From the IMG/VR virus record IMGVR_UViG_3300037322_000296, positions 3,085 to 67,084 of that record: a DNA stretch of 64,000 nt, one strand, 5' to 3'. The notes beneath the pieces were generated by a model that was not told where the DNA came from, made no database searches, and saw nothing but the letters and a program-made list of their open reading frames with translations. The position numbers and the translations under genes are program-made. Source of the DNA: a virus. Positions 27,734 through 45,709 of the stretch are shown here, in pieces. Every line of letters starts with the position of its first letter. Positions within the stretch are counted from its first letter, which is position 1.

Positions 27734-27825
27734 TATCTATTTTTTTTAGCGCAATTGGTTAAATTTTTAATTGTTTGGTTATTAGTTATTTAGAAACGTA
27801 GGTTCGTATATATACAAGTTGTAGG
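27734..27825 (+). repeat. attI-like anchor, copy 1 (inverted repeat of 45619-45709)
   Basis: 92 bp, 7 substitutions and 1 gap versus reverse complement of 45619-45709; ends TATATATACAAG|TTGTAGG at first cassette. Confidence 0.9.
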
Positions 27826-27836
27826 TAATGCTGCGT

Positions 27837-28964
27837 TTATCTTAAATAAGACAATATGTAAGCTATAACATCGATTGTCCAGCCATTACCTAACATTTTG
27901 TATCGTTGTGTATCTGAAACGTGATTTGTATAGTTTTCAGGTACGGTTTGCAATCTTTCACATTCTATTGGTGTTAATCTTCTTATGTTGGTTTTTGTTT
28001 GTATTAAATCCATATCACTATGATTCCCACCACTATTTCCGCCAGCAGTATAACAACTCGCTTTTTGTTGATTTTTTTTAATATTTCCTTTTTTATCAAC
28101 TTTTATATAAGTATCGGCATTTCCCATTTTGTGAACTCTTGCACTTATGCAACTTGATTTATTTTCAGATTGTAATGTTTCAGTTGTATATTTATTGAAA
28201 ACTTCGTGATTTTTCAAACATTCTAACATTTTGCCACTCAAAAAATATTTATCAGCAACATCAATTTCTAAAATATCTTTCAATAAAATTCCTTTGTCTT
28301 TTGGTTGTGGAATTGTACATTCTAAATCGCCAAAAAATCCAATTTGTTCAACTCCAATATTTGTCCAGTACAAACGATTTCTATTTTGAGCAGAAAGCAA
28401 AGCACTATTAATTTGGATCGGATTAATTCCGATTGCTCTTGTTAATACTTTTTGCCACTTTTCGCCCATTACTACGTTTTCAAGTAAAAAGTAAATGTTT
28501 GGATTAGTTTCTCGCAATTCGTTTAGTATTCGGATATATTCCCAAAACAAATAAGATTGTCCTTCAAATTCAAAGTTTTGACTTTTCAACTCCAGGTAAT
28601 GCTCGATTGATAAAATTTCAAGTTCACATTTTGTTGCCATTCCTTTTCTTTTTCCAGCAAACGAAAAACTTTGACAAGGCGAACCTCCAGCAAGTATGTG
28701 TACAAATCCTAAATCTTTACCTTTTACGTTTCTTACATCGCCAATTTGTATCGTATTTGGAAAATTAGCCATTGTAACTTGTATTGGATATTTTTCTATT
28801 TCAGAAGCGTAATATTTTGTTGGTGTTTTACTAATTTTATTTAACGCTAATTGAAAGCAACTCATTCCATCGAACAAAGAAACTGCTACAAAATCCGCAC
28901 TACCTACAACACGTGTTTTGCAAGATTGTGAATCCTGTGGTTTAATAATATTTTCGTTTCGCAT
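27837..28964 (-). CDS. C5-cytosine DNA methyltransferase (cassette 1)
   Basis: SLFDG, GGSPCQ, LLENV, QNRNRLY, GNGW motifs. Confidence 0.93.
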   Translation of the reverse strand: MRNENIIKPQDSQSCKTRVVGSADFVAVSLFDGMSCFQLALNKISKTPTKYYASEIEKYPIQVTMANFPNTIQIGDVRNVKGKDLGFVHILAGGSPCQSFSFAGKRKGMATKCELEILSIEHYLELKSQNFEFEGQSYLFWEYIRILNELRETNPNIYFLLENVVMGEKWQKVLTRAIGINPIQINSALLSAQNRNRLYWTNIGVEQIGFFGDLECTIPQPKDKGILLKDILEIDVADKYFLSGKMLECLKNHEVFNKYTTETLQSENKSSCISARVHKMGNADTYIKVDKKGNIKKNQQKASCYTAGGNSGGNHSDMDLIQTKTNIRRLTPIECERLQTVPENYTNHVSDTQRYKMLGNGWTIDVIAYILSYLR

Positions 28965-29027
28965 TGTAATTTATTTTAAGTTGAAATTTTACTGTTACGA
29001 AGTTCACAACCTCGCAAAGCACCAAAC
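28911..29027. repeat. attC-like palindromic spacer A (117 bp)
   Basis: Arms gtgttttgcaagattgtgaa / ttcacaacctcgcaaagcac between AAC and GTT. Confidence 0.85.
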
Positions 29028-29040
29028 GTTAGGCGTAATG

Positions 29041-29994
29041 CTAAGACAACCCTCCGAAGATATGAGCAATCGTATCAACATTCCATCCATTTCCTATCAT
29101 TTTTCTAATTTGGTTATCACTTGCCACACCATCAAAGTAAGTTTCAGGCACGGTTTGTAATCTGCAATATTCTTTGATTGAGTAATAGCGGAAAGGTAAA
29201 TTGTTTTTGAATGCGTTAGGGTGTCGTCCTATTGGCATTGTGGTTAAAACATTGTCTTTTGCTACTGTGGTTAAACAGTTGCTTTTATCTCGGTTTGTGG
29301 CTCTCACTTCAAGGCATTGCGTTATTGGTATTTCTTTGTTGTAATCCTCTCGTTTACCTTTATCGTTCAATCTTCTACCCAAAATAGTAGCCTTATTCAA
29401 TCTTCGTCCTCTTATTGGACTTGGACCAATCATCCCAGTATCTTCTAAAATATCAATCAATTTTATTTGTTTGTCGGTTGGTTGTTCAATTGTAAAGTTT
29501 GCCCAATACAATCGTTCTCTATTTTGGGCTGATACCAAAGCACTATTTATCCTTACAGGTTCTACCCCTAAGTGTTCGGTTATCACTTGTTCAAATTCCT
29601 TTTTCATAACCACATTTTCCAAAAGCCAATATTTCGGTTTACATTCCTTAATCAGTCTTACAAATTCAAAAAATAATTTGCTTCGTGGGTCATCAAAATT
29701 CAATTGCTTCCCGCTAAAACTAAATCCTTGGCAAGGGCTTCCACCTATCAATAAATCTACTTTCGGTAAATCCGTGCCTTTAATATCGGTAACACTTCCA
29801 AGTTGTATCGTATTAGGGTAATTGTGTTGTGTTACTTTTATGGCGTGTTTATCAATCTCCGAAGCATAATATTTGCCATAGGAAATGGATACTCTGTTGA
29901 GTGCAATTTGTCCGCAACTCATACCATCGAATAACGAAAGCACTGCACCTAACACGGGTTTGGCAAAATTGCCGTTTTGTTCTTCTATCAACAT
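29041..29994 (-). CDS. C5-cytosine DNA methyltransferase (cassette 2)
   Basis: SLFDG, GGSPCQ, LLENV, QNRERLY, GNGW motifs. Confidence 0.93.
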   Translation of the reverse strand: MLIEEQNGNFAKPVLGAVLSLFDGMSCGQIALNRVSISYGKYYASEIDKHAIKVTQHNYPNTIQLGSVTDIKGTDLPKVDLLIGGSPCQGFSFSGKQLNFDDPRSKLFFEFVRLIKECKPKYWLLENVVMKKEFEQVITEHLGVEPVRINSALVSAQNRERLYWANFTIEQPTDKQIKLIDILEDTGMIGPSPIRGRRLNKATILGRRLNDKGKREDYNKEIPITQCLEVRATNRDKSNCLTTVAKDNVLTTMPIGRHPNAFKNNLPFRYYSIKEYCRLQTVPETYFDGVASDNQIRKMIGNGWNVDTIAHIFGGLS

Positions 29995-30065
29995 TCGTTC
30001 TTAATTATTAAGTTTTGTATTTCAATTGAGCTTTCGGTTCGGCAACTTCGCCAAGCCCGAAACCG
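29954..30065. repeat. attC-like palindromic spacer B (112 bp)
   Basis: Arms cgggtttggcaaaattgccg / cggcaacttcgccaagcccg. Confidence 0.85.
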
Positions 30066-30077
30066 TTATGCCTCATT

Positions 30078-31046
30078 TTAGGAGGACTTACAGAAACAAT
30101 CAGTTTCAAATTCAAATAACTCTTGTTGTTGTTTTGAAAGTTCGTGTAAATCTTCCGCTTTTGTGAATGGTCTTTGTGCCATTTCTACAAGTTCCTCAAT
30201 ACTTTTATTTGTTCTTAAATCAAATCTCGGTACATCTTCAAAAGCATAAGTTTCTTCCATTCTTTGCCACCATTCCGCAATACTTGGATTATCTTTTATA
30301 ATTGTTAATCGCTTTTTTAATGACTTTTTAAAGCATAAATCACAATTTCCCTCGTAATCTTTTAAACCTAAATCAAAACTTTGTTTTTCCCAAAACTCAC
30401 GAACCATTCTTTGATTCATTGGCAATTCATCGCACAAAGGGTAAATTATATTTTCTTCTTTAGCGTGTATTGATTTTCGGTGCGCCTCGTCTGCTCTAAT
30501 GCCTATTGCACGAATTATATTCATATTTTTAAAATTATCTCTTAAATATGCGTCAATAGGCCTTTGTTTTAACTCTCTTGTGCAATTTGAAGCCATGTTG
30601 TTTGGTAATGGGTATTTTTTAAGCATTGCTTCAAATGGTTCTCCGTTTCTTGATGCAGTTTCAAAATTTACTATTGTGTATGTCGTACCTGTTTTAAAAA
30701 ACCTTACGTCTCTATCAAATTCTCTTAAACCAATAGCGTAATTTTCTCCAAGCATTTCTTTAAAGTCTTCCAGTCCATTTATATCGCATTTCATTCTTCC
30801 GAATCCTGGATAAACAAAATCGTAATTAACGCTTGCTTCAAGCCATATTAAATTTAATCCAAACTCTTTATCACATTTATCGGCAAAAATTAAACTCTTT
30901 TCTAATTCTCTACCTGTATTTAAAAACACATAAATAACGTTTGGATATTTATGTGGATTTTCTTTTAAATGCTTTGCTAAAATTGCAGATGTTCTACCAC
31001 TTGAAAACATACATACATACAATTTATTATTCAATGATTTTTCCAT
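30078..31046 (-). CDS. PAPS-reductase-family (PP-loop) protein (cassette 3)
   Basis: FSSGRTS, NTGRE, CTRELK, IGIRADE, GNCDLCF. Confidence 0.85.
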   Translation of the reverse strand: MEKSLNNKLYVCMFSSGRTSAILAKHLKENPHKYPNVIYVFLNTGRELEKSLIFADKCDKEFGLNLIWLEASVNYDFVYPGFGRMKCDINGLEDFKEMLGENYAIGLREFDRDVRFFKTGTTYTIVNFETASRNGEPFEAMLKKYPLPNNMASNCTRELKQRPIDAYLRDNFKNMNIIRAIGIRADEAHRKSIHAKEENIIYPLCDELPMNQRMVREFWEKQSFDLGLKDYEGNCDLCFKKSLKKRLTIIKDNPSIAEWWQRMEETYAFEDVPRFDLRTNKSIEELVEMAQRPFTKAEDLHELSKQQQELFEFETDCFCKSS

Positions 31047-31197
31047 AAGTATCTATTTCAAATTTTAATTCAAATTCACATTTTATTCCAAAATTTTGAG
31101 TGGAACAAGGATATTTAGATTTACAAACATTACAATAAAAACGAGGCATAACATCGGTTTGCACGCATTGCTCGTTTTCGTTTATATCGTTTTTCAT
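31027..31197 (-). CDS. 56-aa Cys-rich peptide starting inside spacer C (not in ORF track)
   Basis: MKNDINENEQCVQTDVMPRFYCNVCKSKYPCSTQNFGIKCEFELKFEIDTYGKIIE*, overlaps PAPS-reductase start by 20 nt. Confidence 0.55.
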   Translation of the reverse strand: MKNDINENEQCVQTDVMPRFYCNVCKSKYPCSTQNFGIKCEFELKFEIDTYGKIIE

Positions 31198-31262
31198 TTA
31201 CTTTTAGTTTTTAATAATTAAAATTCGTTTTCATAAGTCGCAACGACGTGCAAGCCGCAGCC
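31153..31262. repeat. attC-like palindromic spacer C (110 bp)
   Basis: Arms cggtttgcacgcattgc / gcaacgacgtgcaagccg (one extra base). Confidence 0.85.
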
Positions 31263-31275
31263 GTTAGCAAACAAC

Positions 31276-31725
31276 TTAGTTTGATTCTGCCAATAGTTCA
31301 GGATTTTCAAAAATGTTTCCAATTACATTACAAACTAGATTAATGCAGTTAATTCTAAAAGTCATTTCTTGTTGATTGTATTTGGGTAGTTTATTATTAT
31401 AAACAAAATTACATACGAACATTCCTTCTTTAAACCTCATTATTCCTTGAGCATTAAATCCATTATGTAAAATATCTCCTTCGTAAATATCAATGCCGTT
31501 TTTATCTTTTAATCCTGTAAACTGCATTATGTTTATTTCTCTTGAAAATTGGTCATTTAAAGGTGCATATTCTGAAAAAGCAAAGTCACTACCATAAAGC
31601 ATTTTTGGTTCAGAACAACCAGTAAGATGTTCGTCAAAAACCCTAAAAAATCTAAATTTGAAAAGTCGATTTGCTAACAACGGTTTGAACGCATTGCTTA
31701 AATCTGTGGAATTACTTTTTTTCAT
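31276..31725 (-). CDS. YopX family protein (cassette 4)
   Basis: MQFTGLKDKNGIDIYEGDIL and VIGNIFENPELL. Confidence 0.9.
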   Translation of the reverse strand: MKKSNSTDLSNAFKPLLANRLFKFRFFRVFDEHLTGCSEPKMLYGSDFAFSEYAPLNDQFSREINIMQFTGLKDKNGIDIYEGDILHNGFNAQGIMRFKEGMFVCNFVYNNKLPKYNQQEMTFRINCINLVCNVIGNIFENPELLAESN

Positions 31726-31790
31726 GTTCGTTTGTTTTTAATTATTAAATTTTGTTTTCATAAGCAAGCAACGACGTGCAAGCCGCAGCC
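31679..31790. repeat. attC-like palindromic spacer D (112 bp)
   Basis: Arms cggtttgaacgcattgctt / aagcaacgacgtgcaagccg; last 23 bp identical to spacer C. Confidence 0.85.
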
Positions 31791-31803
31791 GTTACAAGAC
31801 AGT

Positions 31804-32286
31804 TTAGGACAACTGAATAAAACGACCTTTTATGTTGCAGTTCTTTAATATTTCAGCATTGTTTTTTCCGTATGCTATTAATACACTTGGTGCGCCAGCC
31901 GAAGATCCTTTTACTCCTGTAACATGGTAAAAACTTAATCGACCTTTTATAAACAATATCGCATCAGCTTTTTCCCAAACGCACTTAAAAAACATTTTAG
32001 TTTCAGTTCTTGCAAAAGTCAAAGCAATACAATTTCCATGCATTGCAGCTTTTTCTAAAAAATGTTCAGCATATTTTCCATAAGGTGGATTACACCAAAC
32101 CCTACCAAACCAATTTTGCATTAATCCGTTATCATTTATATTGAAATGATTTGTCGCAGTATCCCATGGTCTATTTATCGGAGAACAAGGATCTAAGTCA
32201 AAATCCCCCAATGATTTTATTAGTTCTGGAGGCGTTAACCATTCGTCTTTTCCTGTTGCTGTATTTCCTTCAAAAGTTACATTCAT
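31804..32286 (-). CDS. phage N6-adenine DNA methyltransferase (cassette 5)
   Basis: DEWLTP, LDPCS, WCNPPY, ARTET; probable ATG at 32286 (MNVTFEG). Confidence 0.88.
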   Translation of the reverse strand: MNVTFEGNTATGKDEWLTPPELIKSLGDFDLDPCSPINRPWDTATNHFNINDNGLMQNWFGRVWCNPPYGKYAEHFLEKAAMHGNCIALTFARTETKMFFKCVWEKADAILFIKGRLSFYHVTGVKGSSAGAPSVLIAYGKNNAEILKNCNIKGRFIQLS

Positions 32287-32317
32287 AATTTGTGTGAATA
32301 AAAAACCGTCTTGTAAC

Positions 32318-32436
32318 ACTCGTTTTGTGCTATTACGGCAGTTGTGGTTAATTCATATTTGTTTTGCACGTAGGCGTTTATTTTTAATTGAAAATCTAGT
32401 TTTCGCTAATCCGTAACAGACACAAAGCGAGGGAAC
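32318..32436. repeat. attC-like palindromic spacer E (119 bp)
   Basis: Arms ctcgttttgtgctattacgg / ccgtaacagacacaaagcgag (one extra base). Confidence 0.85.
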
Positions 32437-32437
32437 G

Positions 32438-32875
32438 TTAGTGGTCAGTTAAAGAACTAATCTGCAATTCTTCACTATTCCGAAAAAAGAATATATTTTG
32501 CAAGTGGTGTAGCCCTTTGATTTCAACTCTTGAAACGTATTCAATCCATAGTCCATTGATGAAATTAATTTGCATTCCAAATAAATTAAAACTTGGAAAA
32601 TCTTTTAAATCTAACTTTACAGCATTTAATTTTAAAAGCAATTCTTCTGAAATTGGTATCGATTCAAATTCAGAGTGTTCGGTATAATCAAACGTAATTT
32701 CATCAATGTATAAGTATTCAGAATCTACACCAGTAACTGTACTATATTTTCTTTCTCCGTAAATTAATTTTACAATATTTCCAATACGTATTTCGGTTGG
32801 TAAAATAGCCGAACCGCTGACAGCATTTTGGCAAGATTGCTGATTTTGTGGTTCATTAATGTTTTCGTTTAACAC
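32438..32875 (-). CDS. hypothetical phage protein (cassette 6), paralog of 35466-35852
   Basis: EIRIGNIVK...IPISEELLLKL...LHHLQNIFF; TAA stop lies inside the cassette end TAAC. Confidence 0.8.
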   Translation of the reverse strand: MLNENINEPQNQQSCQNAVSGSAILPTEIRIGNIVKLIYGERKYSTVTGVDSEYLYIDEITFDYTEHSEFESIPISEELLLKLNAVKLDLKDFPSFNLFGMQINFINGLWIEYVSRVEIKGLHHLQNIFFFRNSEELQISSLTDH

Positions 32876-32894
32876 AATAAGTAATTTTAAATTT

Positions 32895-33617
32895 TTATTT
32901 ATTAACTTTTATTTTATCGGCAAAGTATATTTGACCTTTGCCTGTAATTTTGGTAGTTTTAGTTGTAAATGTTTCTAAGCCACTTCCAATAGTCCTAGTT
33001 ACCACTTCAAATAGTCCAGAAGCAACATGGTTTTGATATGGTTCATTATCTTTGTTTAAGTATTTTTTATCTCTAAACCATTCAAAAACTCTATTTTGAC
33101 CTATTTCAAAACCGCTATCACATAAATCCTTAGCAAATTGACGAACTAATATTGAGTTTGAACTGCCAATGACACTTTCTGCAAAAATAACCTTAGATTT
33201 ATCCTGTTCTATCTTATCAGTCGCTTCTAGTAATAAATTAGATACTCTAATGTTCTCAACCAACAATACTCTTTCTGAATCAATTACTTCCAGATGTGTT
33301 CTTGGTCTTAGGACTGCTTTTTCACAAGCGATAAAATATCTTCTAACTTCTTTTCCTTTTGGAACTTTAGAAAGCATCGCTAATTCCTTAGCGCAATCAA
33401 TAGTTAATGCATAGTCAATTCTATTAGTGCCTCCAATTCCGTTATCGTGGTTAACGTATGCCTTAATCGCCTGATAATCAATGTTCTCATCAAATTGAAC
33501 TTTATTATCATCAAACCATTGTGTAAAGTGATTTTTAATATCAAGAGCTTCGTAAAGATTTCTTGCGGAAACAACTTGTTCTCCGTTTCTTTCTGTAATT
33601 TTTATTAATTGTTCCAT
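32895..33617 (-). CDS. phage antirepressor (AntA + KilAC domains)
   Basis: VVSARNLYEAL...AKELAM...VRRYFI and DKSKVIFAESV...TKITGKGQIYF. Confidence 0.9.
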   Translation of the reverse strand: MEQLIKITERNGEQVVSARNLYEALDIKNHFTQWFDDNKVQFDENIDYQAIKAYVNHDNGIGGTNRIDYALTIDCAKELAMLSKVPKGKEVRRYFIACEKAVLRPRTHLEVIDSERVLLVENIRVSNLLLEATDKIEQDKSKVIFAESVIGSSNSILVRQFAKDLCDSGFEIGQNRVFEWFRDKKYLNKDNEPYQNHVASGLFEVVTRTIGSGLETFTTKTTKITGKGQIYFADKIKVNK

Positions 33618-33618
33618 T

Positions 33619-33816
33619 TTAAAAAGGTAATTTTTTAATTATTTTTTTAATTTCAGATAGCTCCCAATTATGAAGCTTTAATCTTCTCTCTAAGGTAGGT
33701 CTTGTGAATCCAATAATACCACAAATTTGGCCCTTTGTTAACGTTCCAACCCAATTTAATACACCGTAAGAAACCAACTTTTTGTTAACTATTAATTTTT
33801 TCAAACCTTCATCCAT
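33619..33816 (-). CDS. small HTH DNA-binding protein (Cro-like)
   Basis: TKGQICGIIGFTRPTLERRL. Confidence 0.6.
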   Translation of the reverse strand: MDEGLKKLIVNKKLVSYGVLNWVGTLTKGQICGIIGFTRPTLERRLKLHNWELSEIKKIIKKLPF

Positions 33817-33831
33817 ATCTAAATATTTTTA

Positions 33832-33839
33832 CAAATATA
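33832..33839 (-). promoter_or_regulatory. -7 promoter element (TATATTTG) for the HTH-antirepressor-cassette operon
   Basis: Reverse complement of caaatata 16 bp before ATG at 33816. Confidence 0.6.
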
Positions 33840-34002
33840 TTAAAAATATATTAAAAATATATTAATTACAAAGTTTTTGATTAAAAAAATAATTTCTATG
33901 CTATTTTTATGGTAAACTCACATCTTGGATTTTCTTTATCAATAAACTTTCTTGCATGTATTAAAGAGCAATTATTATCGTTTTTAATAACCTTTAATTT
34001 GG

Positions 34003-35046
34003 TTATTTTTTATATAACTTGTAATAATGCTTTCTACATAATTCTTTTGAGTGATTTTTATTTTCACAACCATCAACAGAACACTTTATTACTGAACTTA
34101 AATATTCATCTGAATCTAAAATACCCCAGTTAGGGATAAAAGAAGATGCTTTCTTAATCTCATTATATCTTTTTTTATCTATTAAAGACATTTTTTCGTT
34201 TGGATAATATTTTGCAAATCTTTTTAATTTAGTTTTTGATTTATCATCCATCCAACCTTTAATTTCTATCCAAAATTGAGATCCATCAATATTTGTTATT
34301 AATAAATCAGGTTTATAACTTCTAACACCTCTTTTTATTAATTCAAACCAAAATGTTTTAGGTTCATATTCCCATTCCTTTATTTCATTTTTAGTTTTTA
34401 AAAACTCATAATAAGCTATGATGTTAGCTTCCCAAGAAGACCTAACAAAAACAGTTTTACCACCAATAGTTATTGTTCCTTGTTTTGCTCTAGAATAATT
34501 ACTAGATAACACTCCATTTGCTCTATTTTTACTCATTATGTTAGATTGGTTTTGTTTATGTTCTTCTGAATTAAAAAAGTGATTTTTATTTTCCCATGCT
34601 TTTTTAGTTGATTCTGAAATCTTTTTTTTAGTTTCTTGACTATGTTTACCTCCTAAAAATCCTTTTGGATGCCCTTTTTCTTTTAACCTTTGTTTTGTTT
34701 TTTTTGATAAATTATCTTTAGCTTTATCTGGTATTTTTGAATTTCTATTTGTTAACCCTAATTTTTTAGCTTTTCTACTAATGAAAGGGATTGTTCTATT
34801 CATAATTAAAGCTAATTCTTTTAAGTTCCAATCATCTTTGTATTTTTCATAATTTTCTATCAAAAATTTTTCATCTTCTTCTGTGAAATAATTTATTTTT
34901 TTACATAAATTATGTTTGCTTAAAACAAAATGTATATATTGACCTGTAAGGTTAAAGAAATGACCAACCTTCCATACGTTTTTTAATTCAATATATTTTT
35001 TATTTATTTCAGACAAATGTATTCCTTTATAAAAAATATCTTCCAT
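34003..35046 (-). CDS. putative freestanding homing endonuclease (NUMOD3-like motifs + PD-(D/E)XK nuclease)
   Basis: GGKHSQETKKKISES; RSSWEAN, YEP, YKPDLL, IEIKG; C-terminal C-x4-C...C-x2-H; probable start MEDIF after own -7 motif at 35057-35064. Confidence 0.7.
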   Translation of the reverse strand: MEDIFYKGIHLSEINKKYIELKNVWKVGHFFNLTGQYIHFVLSKHNLCKKINYFTEEDEKFLIENYEKYKDDWNLKELALIMNRTIPFISRKAKKLGLTNRNSKIPDKAKDNLSKKTKQRLKEKGHPKGFLGGKHSQETKKKISESTKKAWENKNHFFNSEEHKQNQSNIMSKNRANGVLSSNYSRAKQGTITIGGKTVFVRSSWEANIIAYYEFLKTKNEIKEWEYEPKTFWFELIKRGVRSYKPDLLITNIDGSQFWIEIKGWMDDKSKTKLKRFAKYYPNEKMSLIDKKRYNEIKKASSFIPNWGILDSDEYLSSVIKCSVDGCENKNHSKELCRKHYYKLYKK

Positions 35047-35116
35047 TTTTTTTTGACAAAGATAATACATTTAAGAGTATAGAACAAAGTATTTTTGCTG
35101 ATAATTCCATTTATTT

Positions 35117-35852: not shown

Positions 35853-35863
35853 AATTTTTTGTT

Positions 35864-36061
35864 TTATAACAATACTATTTCAAATTTAATTTTTAGATTA
35901 TCTAGTATGTCTGCTAATTTGTTGTAAGACAATGGTAAATCACCTTTTAACCAAACATGTAGGTTTCCTGATCCTTTCAAGCCGCATTGTATTGCAAAAT
36001 CTAGTTTTGACATTTCTGAATTATCAAATAAATCTCTTAATATTTGGTTCGTTTTATACAT
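35864..36061 (-). CDS. small HTH protein
   Basis: MSKLDFAIQCGL...LHVWLKG, XRE-like. Confidence 0.6.
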   Translation of the reverse strand: MYKTNQILRDLFDNSEMSKLDFAIQCGLKGSGNLHVWLKGDLPLSYNKLADILDNLKIKFEIVLL

Positions 36062-36212: not shown

Positions 36213-36213
36213 T

Positions 36214-38837: not shown

Positions 38838-38877
38838 GTTTTTTAGGTTAATATTTTTAACTTTTTTTTGCTAAAAA

Positions 38878-39036
38878 TTAAGCTTTAATTAATATAGCAC
38901 CGTTTACAGTAACGGTACTTACTTTATTCTCTTTTATTAATTTATTTACATACGGAACAGATTTGCATATTTTCTTAGCATACTCTGTCTGCGTATATAA
39001 ATCTTGTCTAATTTCTTTTTTTATTTGAGTTAACAT
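38878..39036 (-). CDS. 52-aa HTH DNA-binding protein (not in ORF track)
   Basis: LYTQTEYAKKICKSVPYVNKLIKENKV; -7 motif at 39094-39101 upstream. Confidence 0.6.
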   Translation of the reverse strand: MLTQIKKEIRQDLYTQTEYAKKICKSVPYVNKLIKENKVSTVTVNGAILIKA

Positions 39037-39129
39037 TTTTTTTAGTTTTGACTTAATAAAAGCGGTAAATTTTATTCTACCGCTATTGAATTACAAATAT
39101 AGTTATTTATTTGTTATTTACAAATTATT

Positions 39130-39510
39130 TTAAAATGGTAAACCCGAATGATCCTCTTCATTAAAATCCGAAGTAGGTGCATTAGGAGTAGAATCTTGCA
39201 AAGGTTTCGCTTCGTATTGAGCAGCGTTTTCTTGACTATCCAATCGTTCTAATTTCCAACCCTTAATTGAGTTGAAATATTTAGTTTCTCCTTTAGGATT
39301 AACCCATTCTCTCCCTCCAATATTTATACCTACTTTAACCGATGTTCCAATTGCCAAATTCTCCAATGAATCAACTTTATCTTGCACAAATTCAATTAAA
39401 ATGTGCTGTGGATATTGCTCTTCTGTAGTAACAACCAATTCTCTTTTTATAAACGTTGGACTAACTGATATAAGTTCTCCAACAAATTTTACTTTTCCTT
39501 CTAATTCCAT
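39130..39510 (-). CDS. single-stranded DNA-binding protein (DUF3127-like)
   Basis: KRELVVTTEEQYPQ, GREW, YFNSIKGW, acidic tail ending LPF. Confidence 0.88.
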   Translation of the reverse strand: MELEGKVKFVGELISVSPTFIKRELVVTTEEQYPQHILIEFVQDKVDSLENLAIGTSVKVGINIGGREWVNPKGETKYFNSIKGWKLERLDSQENAAQYEAKPLQDSTPNAPTSDFNEEDHSGLPF

Positions 39511-39515
39511 AATTT

Positions 39516-39779
39516 CTAGTTTCTAAACCAATTAGTCTTGGCTGTTATGTATTTATATCCTTTTATTGTTGAGTTTCTACTCTCTATGATTTCTAATATT
39601 TCATAATTAGAGTTTTCACCATCGCTTCCGTCAATTGTTAAAACATCAAGTTCTTCTACATCGAACTTATCTTTTATATTGAATTTAACAATATTGTTTT
39701 CGTTTCTTTTATTGGGATCAGTTTCCCAAATCATAAGTCTAAAATCTTGATTTTCAATGTTCAATCTGTAATTTGTCAT
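39516..39779 (-). CDS. hypothetical protein
   Basis: 87-aa ORF in operon. Confidence 0.6.
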   Translation of the reverse strand: MTNYRLNIENQDFRLMIWETDPNKRNENNIVKFNIKDKFDVEELDVLTIDGSDGENSNYEILEIIESRNSTIKGYKYITAKTNWFRN

Positions 39780-39784
39780 AATTT

Positions 39785-40171
39785 CTAGTTTATTAATTTT
39801 GTTAAATCTACTGCTTGAAACCCTTCTGGCTTTAAAATCTTACCAAATTCATTTCTTTTTACTTTTCCATCAGGACCAACTTTTGTCATATTATTCAAAT
39901 GAACAAGGTTGAAAGCTTCTCCAACTACGTTTTGCAACCCATGAAAATTAATTGTTCCTGCTAAAACATATAATTGATCTACACAAGCGTCTAAAATTTC
40001 AATTAAATCTGAATCTCTACACGCATCTATGTATTCTTCATTTTCTTCCTTCATAAGGTCGAATCTAAGATTTGCGTGGTCTATTTTTGATAAAGTTGGC
40101 TTATCGCTTGTTGGTTGTCCTGTGGCTTTTTGAAAGTCCGATACCGATTCTAATAATTCTTTTAAATTCAT
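39785..40171 (-). CDS. MazG-like NTP pyrophosphohydrolase
   Basis: LMKEENEEY, EILDACVDQLYV, VHLNNMTK, GKILKPEGF. Confidence 0.88.
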   Translation of the reverse strand: MNLKELLESVSDFQKATGQPTSDKPTLSKIDHANLRFDLMKEENEEYIDACRDSDLIEILDACVDQLYVLAGTINFHGLQNVVGEAFNLVHLNNMTKVGPDGKVKRNEFGKILKPEGFQAVDLTKLIN

Positions 40172-40174
40172 ATT

Positions 40175-41074
40175 TTAGTTTTTATTCTTTTCGTAAATTT
40201 CTATTTCTTTCTCACACAAATATTTTCTTGCCAACATAACGACTAACTTCATTTCGTCTATGTCTTCTGGATATAATTCAATGTCAAACTTTTTAACTCT
40301 AAATTGTGGCGGAATTGTAAAATCAAGAATTTTGCTTTGAAACACATAATGTGGAAATTCCTCTTGAAATTCTTTTATATCAAACACCATATTTCTTTCT
40401 AACTGCTGAATTGCCTTGATCCAACTTTCGTTATCATCATCAGGATTTCCTGCTTGATAAAACATTCTAGTTTTCTCGTTTAGAATTTGATGTACCGGAT
40501 TATTTACACAACAATAAACCAACTGACCTTTGTTTAAATTAGTAAGCCAACAATATGCTTTTATTTGAGATTCATACAAGGTCGTAATATCCGAATTTTC
40601 AAAAGATTCTAAATCAAACGAACACTTTGTATCTCTGACTATTTTATCAACATTATCAGGCGTTCCGCAAACGTATTCATTCTCAAAATATTCATCATTT
40701 TTGGAATAAAATGCGTTATCTACTTTAGATAATAAGTCTAGCGCATTTTGCTCTTGAAAATTTCCTTTTTCTAAATACTTATTTGCTAAAAACCTTTTCC
40801 TTTTCCAAAATAAATCTCTAAAAACTTCATCGAGATATGATTTTGCACCTTTTGATAATTCATCTGGCGCATCTCTTTTTGCTTTTAGCTCACCTAGTTT
40901 AATTCGCATATTTTCAGTCAATGCTAATTTAGGGTTGTTCATTGATTCCAAAACTCTTTCTTCAAGTTTTCTAAGTTCGTCTAATTGGTTTTGGGTAATT
41001 TTATTCAAACTACCCATTAATTTACCAATAGAACTTGCTCTAGCCTTCCAATTTTTAAAAACTAATTCGCTCAT
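40175..41074 (-). CDS. lambda-exo/YqaJ-like exonuclease
   Basis: ARASSIG, GTPD, DTKCS, YESQIKAY. Confidence 0.8.
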   Translation of the reverse strand: MSELVFKNWKARASSIGKLMGSLNKITQNQLDELRKLEERVLESMNNPKLALTENMRIKLGELKAKRDAPDELSKGAKSYLDEVFRDLFWKRKRFLANKYLEKGNFQEQNALDLLSKVDNAFYSKNDEYFENEYVCGTPDNVDKIVRDTKCSFDLESFENSDITTLYESQIKAYCWLTNLNKGQLVYCCVNNPVHQILNEKTRMFYQAGNPDDDNESWIKAIQQLERNMVFDIKEFQEEFPHYVFQSKILDFTIPPQFRVKKFDIELYPEDIDEMKLVVMLARKYLCEKEIEIYEKNKN

Positions 41075-41077
41075 AAT

Positions 41078-41992
41078 TTATTTTTTAGTTTTGAATTCTT
41101 TTAATTTATCTGAATACTCTACAAATAAGTCATAATCGTCTTCAGCAGAAGGAGTAAATACACAACTTTTCAACTCTTCTAATGTTGTGCTTAATAACAT
41201 GTGCTTTCGTACATAAGTACTAATCAAGTCGGCATCAATTGGACGGATGGCAGCAGAACATTTTTCTAATTCTGCAATTGTGGCAGATTCTTTTTCAATA
41301 TGCGAAATTACTCTTGCGTGTTGTTTATTTATCGCTACTTCTTGAACACTTGCTTTAGGAGTAACATCAATGTATGGACCAACTTCTGAAGCGTCGCCGT
41401 CAGGAATGTCAGTTCCTTCAACCGTATTAAATAACCATCTTCTTGCTTTTCTTTCTGCTTTGCCTAAAATAGCGTCAGCAGTAGCATAAGCATTTGATTT
41501 AATAGCAAATTCTTGTTCTTGAATGTTAGATACTCCATTCAATTCCCATTTAATTGTAGCGGTACAATTTGCAGAAGACTTGTCTGTTGTAAAAATTGGA
41601 TTAGAATAAGAAATAGAGTATTTCAATCCATTTATTTTTTTAAGAAGCGATCCAAATCCTTGTCGAGTTGGGTACATTTGTTTTGCTATGATGTTAAATT
41701 CATTATTTGTGGGAGAAAGCCCAAGCAAAACTGCATCAATAAGACAAGCTTTAACTTCCTCCATTGAATAAACTTTATCTGTCTTAAATCCTAAATTAGA
41801 GCCTTGAAGAGCCAAAATTGGGTTCATAAATTCAGGAGTTAATTTTTTTTGCAAAACCATTATAGCTGATGCCGTAACGAATGCTTTTTCAAATCCTTCA
41901 ATTTTATTACTTAAAACTGCTAAAATTTGATTGTTTAGTTCTTGCGACACTAAAGATTGTGATTCTGTGATGTTTTTAATTTCTGTTGACAT
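41078..41992 (-). CDS. putative ssDNA-annealing recombinase (RecT-like)
   Basis: AVLLGLSP motif; adjacent to exonuclease and SSB. Confidence 0.55.
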   Translation of the reverse strand: MSTEIKNITESQSLVSQELNNQILAVLSNKIEGFEKAFVTASAIMVLQKKLTPEFMNPILALQGSNLGFKTDKVYSMEEVKACLIDAVLLGLSPTNNEFNIIAKQMYPTRQGFGSLLKKINGLKYSISYSNPIFTTDKSSANCTATIKWELNGVSNIQEQEFAIKSNAYATADAILGKAERKARRWLFNTVEGTDIPDGDASEVGPYIDVTPKASVQEVAINKQHARVISHIEKESATIAELEKCSAAIRPIDADLISTYVRKHMLLSTTLEELKSCVFTPSAEDDYDLFVEYSDKLKEFKTKK

Positions 41993-41996
41993 TTTT

Positions 41997-42218
41997 TTAC
42001 TTTTTAAATTGTTTTAAATATTTTTGTTCAATTCTAGGCGATTTCCCTATAAATACTTTAATAATATCGCCATTTTTTATTTTTCGGTTTACAGTATCTC
42101 TTGAAAGACCTGTTAGTTTGGCAAATTCCGTAATTGAATAATTCCTATCATCATCGGACTTTACATTAATGATGATTCGTTCTCCTGGGTTAACATCTAT
42201 TGTTCTTTCTTCTGCCAT
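41997..42218 (-). CDS. excisionase-like HTH protein
   Basis: YSITEFAKLTGLSRDTVNRKIKNGDI...IGKSPRI. Confidence 0.7.
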   Translation of the reverse strand: MAEERTIDVNPGERIIINVKSDDDRNYSITEFAKLTGLSRDTVNRKIKNGDIIKVFIGKSPRIEQKYLKQFKK

Positions 42219-43414
42219 TATTTTTTAGTTGGTACGTTATAATCTTCTTGCAATATATTCAAGACTTGAAGTAGAACATCTTGTTTCGATCCGTAGTCAA
42301 TTTTATCTGCAATATAATTAAAAATTGAATCCCAAGTTTCTTCAAACTCTACTTCTTGGACCACGACTTCAGTATCTAAAATTACTTTGTCTTCAAGCAT
42401 TGGCAATTCTACTTTTTCTACAACTACTTCCTTTATAGGATCGGGTTTTAAACTTTCTGCTAATTTAGCATCTAAAACTAATTTTTTAGCTTCAAATTCT
42501 ACTTTTTCCTTTTCAAATTTATCTTGTGCAATTCGGTTTTTTTCGTCAGCAAGTCTTTGATCTTCTATCTTAGATATTATTTCTACCTGCTGATTTAAAC
42601 GAGTTTGCATTATAGAATACTTAGCATAAAATTCTTCTTGATAATGCTTTAAACCTGATAATTTAGCAGATTTAAAAGAATTTTTCATTTCCGCAATGTC
42701 TTGAAGTTTCAAAGACGATCCATTTGCGTTCCATTCATTTTCCCACATCCAAATTTTAGTTTGCTCCGATTTCTTTTCTGCAATCAATAAATTCTCAACA
42801 CGAATATTTTCTTGTTCGGTAAGAGTAGAAATTTTATTTTCAAAAACATCGTCTATATAATTTGTTGTTTGCTCAAATAAAACATCATACTCTTGAAATA
42901 AATTTCTATCTACTTCAGAAACCGAAATAGAGTATCCGTCTTTTATTTCTTGAATATTTTCATACTGCATAACTGAAATTTCATTTTCCCATTTTTCCTT
43001 AAATTCTGCAATAGTTTCCTTAATACCATTAATTCTTTCTTCTTCTAAACGTACTTTTTCAAGGCGTTCAAGCTCTTTTACTTCTTCCCAAGCCGAAACC
43101 TTTTCTTGACGAACTTCTTCCGCTAGTCTAACTTCTTGTATTAAAGATTCGTACTGCGTTTTAACCGATTCTATTACGATCACCTTCAACTTACTTACAA
43201 CTTCTTTAGATTCTCTTTCCAAACCTGTACGCAACGTTTTAACGGCAGTTCTTGACTTTTTCATATCTTCATACGAACTGTTGTCAATTACATCTTTAAT
43301 AGGGTTGTTTTTTATAACCTCAGCGATGCTTTCTTTTTTACCTTGAAGTTCTGGTAGATTTTCTGATTTGAACTTCGATAAATCAATAATTTCATTTTTA
43401 ACTTGTTTTGCCAT
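42218..43414 (-). CDS. coiled-coil protein (DUF1351/Gp157-like)
   Basis: 398 aa, helical, first gene of recombination operon. Confidence 0.55.
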   Translation of the reverse strand: MAKQVKNEIIDLSKFKSENLPELQGKKESIAEVIKNNPIKDVIDNSSYEDMKKSRTAVKTLRTGLERESKEVVSKLKVIVIESVKTQYESLIQEVRLAEEVRQEKVSAWEEVKELERLEKVRLEEERINGIKETIAEFKEKWENEISVMQYENIQEIKDGYSISVSEVDRNLFQEYDVLFEQTTNYIDDVFENKISTLTEQENIRVENLLIAEKKSEQTKIWMWENEWNANGSSLKLQDIAEMKNSFKSAKLSGLKHYQEEFYAKYSIMQTRLNQQVEIISKIEDQRLADEKNRIAQDKFEKEKVEFEAKKLVLDAKLAESLKPDPIKEVVVEKVELPMLEDKVILDTEVVVQEVEFEETWDSIFNYIADKIDYGSKQDVLLQVLNILQEDYNVPTKK

Positions 43415-43446
43415 ATTAAATAATTTAGATTAGTAACTCTTGAATG

Positions 43447-43651
43447 CAAAGATAAGAATGTATTTTAAATAACCGCACAATTATTGTATTATTTTTATAT
43501 AAAAAATATCGGAGTAAAGTTTTTCCTACAAATGAAAAGTTACCTAAAACGCTAGGAGTATAGTCTTTGCACTACAATCGTAATATGATTGTGTTTTTAA
43601 TAAAAAATTGTATTAAAATTGTGCGGTAATCAAAAATAATTTATATATTTG
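43447..43651. promoter_or_regulatory. divergent promoter pair with shared AATTGTGCGGT box
   Basis: Minus -7 TATCTTTG (43447-43454) and plus -7 TATATTTG (43644-43651); 11-bp inverted repeat at 43472-43482 and 43617-43627 over each -33 region. Confidence 0.7.
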
Positions 43652-43700
43652 CGTATTGAATAAAACCGCGGTTATAGGCAGTATGGGAATTTAAAAATAA

Positions 43701-44429
43701 ATGAAAATGAAATATATGGGAAGTAAGGCAAGGTTTGCAAAAGAACTATTGCCAATAATATTAAAAGATAGAAAAGAAAATCAATACTATGTAGAGCCTT
43801 TTGTTGGTGGTGCAAATATGATTGACAAAGTAAATGGGTTGAGGATTGCTGGAGATAGTAATAAATATCTAATTGCATTATGGAATGGTTTAAAAACTAA
43901 TAGCGATTTACTTATGGAAATATCAAAAGACACTTTTTCAAAAGCAAGAACTGAATACAATGACAAAACTAATATTGAATTTACAGATTTTGAATTAGGT
44001 TGGATTGGTTTTATGGGAGGGTTTAATGGTAGATTTTATGGTGGGGGATATTCAGGCAAGCATAGAAATAGAGATTATGTAAATGAGCAAATCCGAAATA
44101 CATTAAAGCAATTAGAAGCCATAAAAGATATTGATTTTAATAGTTGTAATTACGACCAATTAGAAATACCAAACGGAAGTATTATTTATTGCGATATTCC
44201 TTATCAAGGTACAAAAGAATATGATACAAAGGATAGATTTAATCATACAGAATTTTGGAGCTGGTGTAGGGAAAAATCAAAAAATAATACTGTCTATGTT
44301 TCAGAATATAATGCACCAGATGATTTTGAGTGTGTTTGGGAAAAGAAAGTAAACGTATCAATTAGACCAACAAAAACCTTACAACAAACAGAACGATTAT
44401 TTAGGCTAAAATCGACTATTGAAAACTAA
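43701..44429 (+). CDS. DNA adenine methyltransferase, D12/Dam class (cassette 7)
   Basis: KYMGSK, YVEPFVGG, IYCDIPY, VSEY. Confidence 0.9.
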   Translation: MKMKYMGSKARFAKELLPIILKDRKENQYYVEPFVGGANMIDKVNGLRIAGDSNKYLIALWNGLKTNSDLLMEISKDTFSKARTEYNDKTNIEFTDFELGWIGFMGGFNGRFYGGGYSGKHRNRDYVNEQIRNTLKQLEAIKDIDFNSCNYDQLEIPNGSIIYCDIPYQGTKEYDTKDRFNHTEFWSWCREKSKNNTVYVSEYNAPDDFECVWEKKVNVSIRPTKTLQQTERLFRLKSTIEN

Positions 44430-44448
44430 TAATAATATTGCCTATAAC

Positions 44449-44567
44449 GTTCCCTCGCTTGCTCGTCGTTGCGGATTTCGTAACGATAAATTTTCAACTT
44501 AAAAATAAATATGATGCGAAACGAAAATATGATTAAACCAATAAACTCACAATCTTGCAAAACACGT
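44449..44567. repeat. attC-like spacer F (119 bp), apparently chimeric
   Basis: Most of it resembles reverse complement of spacer A (…tcacaatcttgcaaaacacgt identical); first 12 nt match reverse complement of spacer E end. Confidence 0.8.
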
Positions 44568-44634
44568 GTTGTAGGCATACCACTTAACACTTTTAAAAAT
44601 AACTTAAATTAAAAATAACTTAAATTAAATAAAA

Positions 44635-45600
44635 ATGAAAAAATATCCAAGTATCGAGCAGTTTAGAAATGTTATTAGAACTGTAAAAACAAATCACGAT
44701 TATCAAGGTAAAGATGAAAATGGAGAAAGTATTTATTCTCACAATTCTAATTACCCAACTTTAAAATTCAAAGGAACTGTAAAGCTTCACGGAACAAATG
44801 CTGGAGTTGTAAAATACGCTGATGGAAAAATAGAATTTCAATCAAGAGAAAGAGTTTTAACTTTAGATTCAGATAATTCTGGATTTATGAATAAAATGCA
44901 CTTATTAGATTTTGAAAAATATTTTTCTCAATTAACATTTACAGAAAGTTGTGCGATTTATGGAGAATGGTGTGGTGGAAACGTTCAAAAAGGAGTTGCT
45001 ATAAACGGACTTGAAAAAATGTTTGTGATTTTTGGAGTAAAAACAGATGATGAATGGATTGAAATTCCTGTAACATTTATAGATGAAGAAAATAAAATAT
45101 TCAATATTAATCAATTCAAAACGTATGAAGTTGAAATAGATTTTAATAATCCAGAATTAATACAAAATAAACTTATTGAATTGACTATTGAAGTTGAAAA
45201 TGAATGTCCTGTTGGTAAATATTTTGGGAATATTGGTATTGGAGAAGGAATTGTATTTACTTCTTTAAAGTACCCTGATTTAATATTCAAATCAAAAGGA
45301 GAAAAACATTCTGTATCAAAAGTAAAAGTGTTAAATGAAATTGATGTTGTAGCAATGGAAAATATTAATGAATTTATTGAACTATCTGTAACAGAAAATA
45401 GATTGAAACAAGGATTACAAGTTTTAAAAGAAAATGGAATATTGATAGAGACTAAATCAATTGGAGAGTTTTTAAGATGGATTGTAACTGATGTTTTAAA
45501 AGAAGAAAAAGACACTTTAGAAACAAGTAGATTAGATGAGAAAAAAGTGAAAGGAGCAATTGTAAACAAAGCAAGAGTTTGGTTTTTAAACAATTTTTAG
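44635..45600 (+). CDS. RNA ligase, Rnl2-like (cassette 8)
   Basis: Motif I KLHGTN, QSRER, YGEW, GEGIV, FKSK. Confidence 0.88.
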   Translation: MKKYPSIEQFRNVIRTVKTNHDYQGKDENGESIYSHNSNYPTLKFKGTVKLHGTNAGVVKYADGKIEFQSRERVLTLDSDNSGFMNKMHLLDFEKYFSQLTFTESCAIYGEWCGGNVQKGVAINGLEKMFVIFGVKTDDEWIEIPVTFIDEENKIFNINQFKTYEVEIDFNNPELIQNKLIELTIEVENECPVGKYFGNIGIGEGIVFTSLKYPDLIFKSKGEKHSVSKVKVLNEIDVVAMENINEFIELSVTENRLKQGLQVLKENGILIETKSIGEFLRWIVTDVLKEEKDTLETSRLDEKKVKGAIVNKARVWFLNNF

Positions 45601-45618
45601 CGATAATATGGGCGGTTG

Positions 45619-45709
45619 CCTACAACTTGTATATATAAGAACCTACATTTGTAAAATACTTATAACCAAACAATTAAAAATTGAACCAATTGCGCTAAAA
45701 AAATAGATA
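45619..45709 (-). repeat. attI-like anchor, copy 2 (inverted repeat of 27734-27825)
   Basis: See copy 1; ends at the base immediately before the recombinase ATG (45710). Confidence 0.9.

Follow-up and report, generated by a model that had tools for sequence, protein, structure and literature searches.

Why does a single phage genome carry two copies of the same short noncoding element, one at the end of each of two gene arrays, in inverted orientation? The stretch of DNA analyzed here (the window, 64,000 nt, positions 3,085 to 67,084 of IMG/VR record IMGVR_UViG_3300037322_000296) belongs to a temperate Flavobacteriaceae-type phage with two divergent early operons, each ending in an array of accessory genes (DNA methylases, an RNA ligase, and others). 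The element, hereafter the anchor, occurs twice in the full 67,084-nt virus record, and both copies lie in the window. Sequence comparison leads us to consider it fairly probable that in the anchor we see the fixed end of a cassette system that is integron-like, belongs to Flavobacteriaceae phages, and would be acted on by a host recombinase.

The two anchors correspond to inverted repeat I2, with 88-nt arms at 27741-27828 and 45616-45703 that are 91% complementary and separated by 17,787 nt. Among the inverted repeats of the window, only I1 (28903-29010 and 44468-44575, 108 nt, 84%) is longer, and the 45 other pairs span 27-40 nt at 70-85%. Since I1 is nested just inside I2, one unrelated gene lies between each anchor and a related hairpin junction. 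When 27650-27900 (plus strand) and the reverse complement of 45540-45790 were aligned using MAFFT, we found a single similarity block, which begins with the T run ahead of the initial conserved segment and extends to the final 7 nt (the TTGTAGG side), with flanks that could not be aligned on either side. The 7 substitutions and one single-base indel that the initial annotation had counted by hand were recovered unchanged, and its remark that the anchor forms no hairpin held as well, with RNA folding z-scores of 0.44, -0.01, and -1.16 for three copies, no better than shuffled sequences. No tRNAs were found in the window, and the sole Rfam match in it at gathering scores was a DUF805b motif away from the anchor. 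The anchors and the genes that they lead are as follows.

27734..27817, minus strand: anchor, left copy; begins straight after the AAC (27820-27818) of the last cassette and leads to orf125.
27817-27800, minus strand: anchor core, left copy; the first ~18 nt, which recur even where the remainder is replaced.
27333..27710, minus strand: orf125, led by the left anchor; no family match.
45627..45709, plus strand: anchor, right copy; begins straight after AAC 45624-45626 and extends to the integrase ATG.
45627-45644, plus strand: anchor core, right copy.
45710..46960, plus strand: 416-aa tyrosine integrase, the gene that the right anchor leads; ordinary phage/Bacteroidota type, neither IntI-like nor of the array-associated family.

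The accessory genes of both arrays are parted by ~140-nt hairpins with strong covariation, five full ones in 28900-32452 and one at 44433-44578, which are of attC type according to a model that was built here and is not the published one. The hairpins and the cassette ends are the following.

27818..27827, minus strand: 10-mer at the cassette end next to the anchor, left array; its exact reverse complement follows hairpin 28900-29043.
28900..29043, minus strand: attC-like hairpin, left member of I1; its loop holds the ATG (28964) of C5 methylase 27837-28964.
29943..30080, minus strand: attC-like hairpin; its loop holds the ATG (29994) of C5 methylase 29041-29994.
31142..31278, minus strand: attC-like hairpin with a mini-ORF in its loop; the PAPS-reductase-like gene 30078-31046 begins 96 nt on.
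31668..31806, minus strand: attC-like hairpin; its loop holds the ATG (31725) of YopX-like gene 31276-31725.
32307..32452, minus strand: attC-like hairpin before Dam-like gene 31804-32319; together with the preceding 145-aa gene, it is 91% identical to a block of phage contig L004.
32837..32923, minus strand: half hairpin that comprises just a loop and a right arm; it precedes ORF 32438-32875 and ends the left array on the promoter side.
43671..43680, plus strand: 10-mer exactly reverse complementary to 44439-44448, on a right-arm remnant inside the divergent promoter region.
44433..44578, plus strand: attC-like hairpin, right member of I1; its leader ORF ends early, and RNA ligase 44635-45600 starts from a codon of its own.
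45617..45626, plus strand: 10-mer at the cassette end next to the anchor, right array; its exact reverse complement follows hairpin 44433-44578.

Judged with our model, these elements have the attributes of attC sites: they are imperfect hairpins with conserved ends (..AAC and GTT..), in which pairing is kept and sequence is variable. Compensatory changes affect 18 of the 24 base pairs, while the outer helix is nearly invariant, and 91.2% of cells are paired versus 68.5% in shuffled alignments (none of 500 reached the observed value) and 30-48% when the alignment is slid. The stems are not conserved in sequence, and the loops hold start codons and do not end in a T run. Folding energies of single hairpins are unremarkable (z from 0.81 to -4.53, below -2 in two of the six).

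The ends of the cassettes follow a second rule. The 10-mer that follows a hairpin recurs, as its reverse complement, ahead of the next hairpin or of the anchor. Complementarity across a cassette averages 5.0 of 6 variable positions (22 pairs), versus 2.35 within one hairpin (23 pairs) and 2.14 in an all-against-all comparison; the observed sum was reached in none of 20,000 random draws, and seven of seven anchor-adjacent pairs score at least 5/6. Each cassette has, as in integrons, a private 10-nt inverted repeat. The inverse core to which the start of a cassette is complementary belongs, as Hall and Stokes are said to have found, to the attC of that cassette and not to its neighbor's, and the phage cassettes obey this end-complementarity rule of integrons. 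A general 7-nt cassette core was considered and rejected, since the motif has 15 matches in the window against 6 expected but only 4 of these are in the arrays; it is the private end of one cassette, and there is no general core.

The association of the anchor with cassette arrays, on which the initial annotation had staked its reading, recurs elsewhere: besides both arrays of the window, the anchor closes arrays of six other phage contigs, giving nine copies in seven phage records. Its further claim that the anchor meets the first cassette at an exact base applies to every one of these copies, homology starting directly after the ..AAC of the last cassette with single-base precision in nine of nine. 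The turnover of cassettes stops at this base. Eight different cassettes adjoin the same site, and when the eight full anchor copies are compared in pairs, blastn detects no similarity between the 403 nt on their array sides in any of the 28 comparisons. On the far side, 490 nt are 90-95% identical over the full length in all 15 pairs from the six loci with a common downstream gene of 277 aa. Across the anchor, the neighbor of the array in the six other records is this AAA-like gene or another gene. In phage contig L007, a second array (L007b) is closed by the ~21-nt core alone, followed by a different sequence. We found the anchor neither in the bacterial genome contigs, nor in the metagenome contigs, nor in the 50,697 isolate phage records searched, and it is thus known from a small clade only; a 19-nt end pattern had no match in viral contigs. 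An att core or attP site for the adjacent integrase was dropped as an explanation of the anchor because six other records bear the anchor without an adjacent integrase.

The alternative that survives best, although we consider it unlikely, is that the anchor serves only as a movable promoter with a 5' leader, comparable to the mobile PeSL modules, whose sharp edge results from homologous recombination between repeated regulatory sequences and not from a site-specific enzyme. Indeed, the start codon of the gene that follows always lies at or close to the end of the anchor, and three genes unrelated to one another are led by it (orf125, the integrase, and the 277-aa gene). A box resembling the Bacteroidota -7 box TAnnTTTG is found in the right orientation in seven of the nine anchors, perfect in four of them, including the right copy (45644-45651), and with the last base off in three, and one recurring variant of the same box type lies 25-45 nt before several structural genes of the phage. 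However, the box is missing from the L020 and L007b anchors and is not enriched in the window (119 found versus 112.7 expected), and in the anchor it lies 59 nt before the ATG, farther than in the other candidate promoters of the phage. An operator motif common to the anchor and the divergent promoter region was rejected (6 matches versus 4.75 expected). Nor do genes of this kind need such a leader: anchor and hairpins are both present in six of six loci whose 277-aa gene is a close copy (95-100%), but neither an anchor nor a full hairpin was found in any of eight loci with distant (60-67%), array-free copies, for which reason the anchor was also rejected as the native promoter of that gene. 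These hairpin negatives come from covariance searches with filters off, the default filters missing an 80-bit hairpin in contig L006. Homologous exchange leaves unexplained both the private 10-nt end complementarity and the single-base precision of all nine junctions. The two readings are not exclusive, and the last ~65 nt of the anchor may well be a leader in addition to the docking site that we favor.

We regard it as improbable that the hairpins and the anchor act in RNA only, by controlling mRNA processing or translation of each accessory gene, with no role in DNA recombination. It is true that all hairpins are on the sense strand (23 of 23 matches with E ≤ 0.03 are on the strand of the genes and the anchor), that a start codon is enclosed in four of the six window hairpins, and that three base pairs are kept as G-U on that strand. 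A local RNA hairpin, however, explains neither complementary 10-mers that lie a whole gene apart nor the swapping of unrelated genes exactly at these points, and the same hairpin family is fixed beside a bacterial tyrosine recombinase and a palindromic core site, in arrays where at least one cassette ORF is on the opposite strand. Weaker still, and very improbable, is the inversion that the initial annotation had also raised, whereby the adjacent integrase or a host enzyme would flip the 18-kb replication/methylase block and switch which operon reads into the integrase or orf125: there are inverted repeats at the borders (88 nt, 91%, with identical runs of ~20 nt) and a tyrosine recombinase gene starts directly after the right copy, but the two L007 copies are in direct orientation on the same strand, all nine copies point along their genes so that the inverted arrangement needs no inversion, the left copy shows no sign of exchange with the right one because it is closer to the L005 copy (97% versus 90% identity), and inversion would change little since each copy would still lead its own downstream gene.

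The architecture seen in the phage has a parallel in bacteria. Our hairpin model matches 42 of 151 Flavobacteriaceae genomes, and in Flavobacteriaceae chromosomes the same hairpin family is found beyond the 3' end of a Xer/IntI-like recombinase gene: 12 of 30 recombinase loci have hairpins, all 15 of which are found past that 3' end and point the same way. [quoted passage not shown] The site-proximal chromosomal cassettes follow the same complementarity rule, with at least 5/6 in 8 of 12 and a perfect score in 5 of 12. The attI analogue proposed in the initial annotation stands insofar as the anchor is a conserved site with no fold of its own, same-base junctions, unrelated cassettes in all pairs, and the position of a core site; a link to an adjacent host integron integrase is not supported. 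The anchor was not found in bacterial genomes, and the neighboring phage integrase falls outside the array-associated family. It is an ordinary and distantly related phage integrase that reaches only 26.9 bits with XerC and has no TIGR02249 match at E ≤ 0.01; no relatives of it were found in genome contigs. None of five anchor-bearing phage records, including that of the window, reaches the NF040815 cutoff for the array-associated recombinase. PF00589 has no match in three of five related records (four phage contigs and phage 2A) and none in one complete genome with terminal repeats, and no neighboring recombinase was found in the other anchor-bearing phage records searched. At the sequence level, an HMM of the bacterial site aligns in register with the window anchors at 4.2 and 4.0 bits (E of 16-18; third- and fourth-best matches in the window) and picks up four of the nine anchor copies, none of this similarity being significant, and an HMM of the anchor finds nothing in 56 bacterial loci. 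With neither HMM significant, we rejected the idea that the anchor was copied from the host core site, and we keep only as a lead the apparent resemblance of the two over ~12 nt beside the junction.

How does this compare with known systems? A word search of open-access text for such a system in Flavobacteriaceae or their phages returned only two close matches, Qi et al. 2023 (PMC9892861) and the rAID-1 preprint (Ross et al., bioRxiv 10.1101/471110). The former describes clusters of attC sites without integrase (CALINs) in phages, such as Polaribacter phage P12002L with two methylase cassettes. As in the window, arrays of attC-like hairpins surround accessory genes, DNA methylases in particular, and the Flavobacteriaceae phage that carries them has no IntI; the published attC1 of P12002L starts as the left arm of the window hairpins does. 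In the window record, our model finds at least two attC-type sites close together and no IntI-like gene, the makeup of a CALIN, and on P12002L it gives a weak, compact match beside a methylase gene. The window differs in that its hairpins have a 70-90 nt loop with the start codon of the next gene, its genes read towards the docking site, and one genome holds two arrays and two docking sites; in the excerpts of PMC9892861, a conserved non-hairpin closing site is not described for those virulent phages. The rAID-1 elements of gut Bacteroidales are chromosomal and, as far as the accessible part of the preprint describes them, combine a XerD-like tyrosine recombinase in cis, a conserved motif past its stop codon, and an array of immunity genes with repetitive integron-like intergenic sequences. 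Such a combination is present in the Flavobacteriaceae loci with the same hairpin family, a likeness of description and not of sequence, whereas in the phage arrays this recombinase is lacking and the genes point in the opposite direction. PeSL promoter/stem-loop cassettes of T4-like phages, according to excerpts of PMC2839356 and PMC4122927, likewise flank small accessory genes of plastic regions as recurrent regulatory elements, with a presumed role in shuffling these genes by homologous recombination at conserved motifs; in the window, by contrast, the stems vary in sequence with pairing kept, and cassettes have private complementary ends.

Classical integrons (e.g., class 1 and Vibrio chromosomal ones) share with the phage arrays the structure-conserved, sequence-variable hairpins ending in AAC and GTT, the cassette start complementary to its own inverse core, and a separate array-end site that is no hairpin but is joined at the very base used by the hairpin sites. 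They differ in that the phage element has no IntI-type integrase, the recombinase of its bacterial relatives scores below the TIGR02249 cutoff (205-212 versus 265 bits, matching in two parts and leaving out the center of the model), the anchor is not beside its recombinase in phages, and there is no promoter reading from the anchor into the array, the cassettes being transcribed towards the site and on the opposite strand relative to it.

Sequence comparison shows the layout of the arrays, their exact junctions, the turnover of cassettes at the anchor, the covariation, and the parallel architecture in bacteria; from this comparative evidence we infer that recombination takes place at the anchor, which enzyme performs it, and the promoter role. 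Under the reading that we favor, each accessory gene would be a cassette led by an imperfect, structure-conserved attC-like hairpin, usually enclosing the start codon of that gene, with bounds (GTT plus 7 nt and 7 nt plus AAC) complementary to each other within one cassette. The first ~20 nt of the anchor, right after the last AAC, would be a double-stranded attI-like docking site for the insertion or exchange of cassettes, and the remaining ~65 nt an A-rich leader, perhaps a host-type promoter, that restores expression of the gene after the array. The enzyme would be the array-associated Xer/IntI-like tyrosine recombinase of the host and not a phage enzyme. The inverted orientation of the two anchors would simply follow from the presence of one array, with its docking site, on either of two divergent early operons. 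A bolder proposal, possible rather than probable, is that stand-alone docking sites in some Flavobacteriaceae phages mimic the host core site and borrow the Xer/IntI-like enzyme during infection or lysogeny to load, unload, and swap hairpin-led genes (such as methylases and an RNA ligase, likely anti-defense cargo), which would make the system an integrase-free "mirror integron" with translation starts inside recombination hairpins, genes read towards the site, and room for two platforms in a single genome, one per early operon.

This bears on how phage accessory genes, above all methylases and counter-defense genes, turn over so fast, which is mostly ascribed to illegitimate or homologous recombination. 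Here, nine copies define the turnover point to a single base, and eight cassettes unrelated to each other adjoin it. Were a host recombinase to act on the anchor, a bacterial gene-capture system would be serving phages directly, one that would differ from the classical integron in enzyme and polarity, and phage CALINs would be working platforms rather than debris.

Counting against the favored reading, exchanges are not confined to the anchor. The block that the window shares with L004 (32314-32903, 91%) ends at the GTT of the downstream hairpin, and the right I1 hairpin (44433-44578) is a hybrid since its two arms do not pair; exchanges therefore also occur at other points. Finally, the D12 Dam methylase gene at 43701-44429 is a cassette as well, because the 10-mer at 43671-43680 is the exact reverse complement of 44439-44448.

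The window is a temperate Flavobacteriaceae-type phage. At the DNA level it is closest to Flavobacterium and Polaribacter phages, and the top relatives (52-61%) of its DUF3127 single-strand-binding-like protein come from Flavobacteriaceae genomes. Its genes are laid out as follows.

Structural genes: to 27319, plus strand
Minus-strand operon: 43414 down to 27333, minus strand; replication genes, Ant, a 145-aa ORF, a Dam-like methylase, YopX, a PAPS-reductase-like gene, two C5 methylases and orf125, in that order
Divergent promoter region: 43415-43700
Plus-strand operon: plus strand; D12 Dam methylase, RNA ligase, tyrosine integrase, RNase H-like gene

In each operon, a ~90-nt repeat, the anchor, lies 3' of the final accessory gene and immediately 5' of the next gene, which is orf125 (27333..27710) on the left and the integrase on the right. 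The two ~92-bp stretches that the initial annotation had matched by hand do differ, once aligned, by seven substitutions and one single-base indel, and their flanks are dissimilar on either side. A repeat search of the window returned them as an inverted repeat of 88 nt (91%; arms 27741-27828 and 45616-45703), and these are the only two copies in the full 67,084-nt virus record. The anchor folds no better than shuffled sequence, in line with the initial remark that it does not form the spacer hairpin. Another inverted repeat, I1 (28903-29010 and 44468-44575, 108 nt, 84%), is nested just within the anchor pair. On the outer side of the left anchor, the structural block ends in a single 2,965-aa ORF (18422-27319) that stops 14 nt short of orf125, with which it is convergent; the gap contains a short GC-rich inverted repeat and a T run.

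The accessory genes are separated by a recurrent hairpin. In each of the intergenic regions of 27837-32452, and in the one at 44430-44634, a sequence ending in AAC is followed by a GC-rich arm; the complementary arm, with an end starting in GTT, comes after 70-90 nt. The stretch that separates them contains an A/T-rich leader and, in most cases, the next gene's start codon and opening codons. In five such copies alone, 9 of the 24 pairs already show compensatory change. A covariance model built from them, run over the window, four related IMG/VR loci and Flavobacterium phage 2A, returned 23 copies at E<=0.03, each on the gene strand. Among 28 aligned matches, 18 of the 24 pairs were compensatory and 91.2% of cells were paired, in an alignment that is model-fitted and favors structure; shuffles gave 68.5% (the observed value was reached in 0 of 500) and slid partners 30-48%. 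Individual folding energies were nothing remarkable; the case for structured hairpins is one of covariation. Infernal default filters miss an 80-bit hairpin on AT-rich DNA (positions 5425-5567 of the related contig L006) that a search without filters recovers; unfiltered, the window contains six hairpins in full and, in addition, a loop-only remnant. Phage 2A, an isolate phage of a fish pathogen, carries a run of five hairpins of this family (6470-8997); the one at 8852-8997 has no gene to lead apart from a short ORF.

The sequences flanking each gene are also related to each other. Behind a hairpin comes a 10-mer, GTT plus seven nt, whose reverse complement (seven nt plus AAC) stands in front of the next hairpin or anchor. 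Across a gene, this complementarity averaged 5.0 over six variable positions (22 pairs), compared to 2.35 within one hairpin (23 pairs) and 2.14 all-against-all, and the observed sum was reached in none of 20,000 random draws. Two pairs in the related contig L005 fall short, at 0 and 1 of 6; the seven pairs next to an anchor all reach 5 or 6. A perfect 10-nt inverted repeat (43671-43680 and 44439-44448) also brackets the D12 Dam gene of the right operon, so the right array comprises two cassettes and the left array six. Judged by its flanks, each accessory gene is a predicted cassette with private ends; Hall and Stokes reportedly defined integron cassettes and their crossover point by this same argument. 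The C5 methylase cassettes are a pair of paralogues whose DNA is 78-79% identical in patches (28266-28412 versus 29443-29550), which accounts for the likeness of their 3' ends and cassette ends.

Pattern scans of IMG/VR, together with relatives of a 277-aa gene found downstream of the anchor, provided seven further anchor copies in six contigs, making nine copies in seven records. Similarity starts immediately after AAC in all nine. On the array side (403 nt), none of the 28 pairs formed by the eight full copies showed detectable similarity; on the other side, all 490 nt are 90-95% identical in 15/15 pairs of the six loci with the 277-aa gene, and in 12 of 13 pairs that include a window copy similarity is confined to the 77-96 nt of the anchor. 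Close relatives of the 277-aa gene (95-100%) have anchor and hairpins in six of six cases; among eight distant relatives (60-67%) neither an anchor nor a full hairpin was found, the unfiltered search returning one loop-only partial. By this comparison, the anchor is tied to arrays rather than to the gene it leads. The initial proposal of an attI analogue is supported, the base-exact junctions and the position at the array end indicating that the anchor is probably a docking site, a reading drawn from comparative anatomy rather than from observed recombination. L007, a 4.6-kb phage contig, has two array ends (547 and 3668), which share one orientation and lie 3.1 kb from each other. Of the anchor, the second array end retains just the initial ~21 nt, beyond which both sequence and gene are different, so the array-terminal function seems to be located in this ~21-nt core. 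The array of phage 2A ends at 5834 in AAC followed by a different, non-anchor sequence.

Behind the core, the anchor matches the Bacteroidota -7 box, perfectly in four copies and with the last base off in three; the box is absent from the L020 copy and from the second array end of L007. After the box comes an A-rich leader that reaches the ATG. Across the window the -7 box shows no enrichment (119 versus 112.7 expected). One 8-nt variant of it lies 25-45 nt 5' of start codons at the following sites.

1065, 3795, 6778, 10428 and 60507, plus strand, and 43447, minus strand: 8-nt -7 box variant upstream of several structural genes and, on the minus strand, of the first early gene

Its position upstream of several phage genes suggests that host-type promoters are in use, and these sites are likely promoters of this phage. 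The last ~65 nt of the anchor might plausibly be a promoter or leader, which is compatible with a docking-site role.

That the two anchors would be the ends of a switchable, invertible segment is unsupported, and the indirect indications go against it: all anchor copies point along their genes, including the two direct copies in L007, the left anchor shares 97% identity with the L005 copy but 90% with the right one, and after inversion each anchor would lead the same downstream gene as before.

The docking-site reading gains a counterpart in bacterial chromosomes. At E<=1e-4, the hairpin model has matches in 42 of 151 sampled Flavobacteriaceae genomes, some as arrays. Hairpin-rich genomes encode a tyrosine recombinase of 375-420 aa, which scores 226 and 224 bits against NF040815 ("tyrosine recombinase/integron integrase"; cut-off 220) and 205 and 212 bits against TIGR02249 (integron integrase), below the cut-off of 265 and in two stretches that skip the middle of the model; relatives at E<=1e-50 occur in 101/151 genomes. 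Of 30 recombinase loci, 12 have hairpin matches, 15 in total; every one of these lies past the recombinase 3' end and points towards the gene. Between the recombinase stop and the AAC of the final cassette, 27 of the 29 loci with enough flank have a core site consisting of two 7-nt inverted arms and an 8-nt spacer.

Bacterial core site: loci L136-L165 (e.g., L151, L152, L153), 2 nt from the AAC of the last cassette and 5-40 nt from the recombinase stop

Complementarity of the ends of the site-adjoining cassette was at least 5 of 6 in 8/12 cases and perfect in 5/12, one failure being a mis-located site. The core site has the look of a double-stranded partner site for a chromosomal integron-like platform whose recombinase falls short of the IntI-model cut-off. 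With hairpin family, complementarity and layout shared, the phage anchor occupies exactly the position of the chromosomal recombinase core site.

Several observations limit this parallel. In HMM searches both ways, likeness between the anchor and the bacterial core site extends over only ~12 nt beside the junction, short of statistical significance. The array-associated recombinase was found in none of the five anchor-bearing phage records searched, the window's own among them; the integrase that the right anchor leads (45710..46960) shares 22% identity with it over 238 residues and matches general integrase families only. In one complete relative with terminal repeats, nothing at all matched a tyrosine recombinase. 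Phage cassette genes read towards the site, opposite to the direction in an integron. In one bacterial locus (L131), the cassette ORF is on the opposite strand relative to the hairpin, which makes the phage version a mirror image. The array ends argue that a hairpin would move together with the gene it leads; however, a contrary case is the one block shared at 91% with another phage (32314-32903), which comprises a gene and the hairpin after it and ends at the GTT of that hairpin. The arms of the right-hand I1 hairpin are unpaired. Both arrays start, on the promoter-proximal side, with half a hairpin, so exchanges take place inside loops too.

The chromosomal platform has the same architecture as the rAID-1 clusters of gut Bacteroidales, for which the available part of Ross et al. 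(10.1101/471110) describes a XerD-like recombinase, a motif past its stop and integron-like intergenic repeats. Clusters of attC without an integrase are already published in phages, as the accessible portion of Qi et al. 2023 (PMC9892861) reports; among them is a Polaribacter phage that carries methylase cassettes and has a first attC beginning like the left arm here, and that portion, dealing with virulent phages, describes no conserved terminal site. Compared with the open-access papers found by word search, a base-precise, integrase-free putative docking site, its presence twice in one genome, a hairpin around the cassette's own start codon and the tie to a Xer/IntI-like chromosomal platform of Flavobacteriaceae are new.

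Elsewhere in the window, an Rfam DUF805b RNA motif (57485-57518, plus strand; 43.6 bits, gathering score 35.6) lies amid two small plus-strand genes. Direct repeats of 80-81 nt, 81-93% identical, at 63073-63324 and 63404-63990 within the open-ended ORF 61576-63999, suggest a repetitive fiber-like protein. Finally, 521 nt without any ORF of at least 70 aa (47338-47858), after the integrase and RNase H-like genes, are a candidate phage attachment site.
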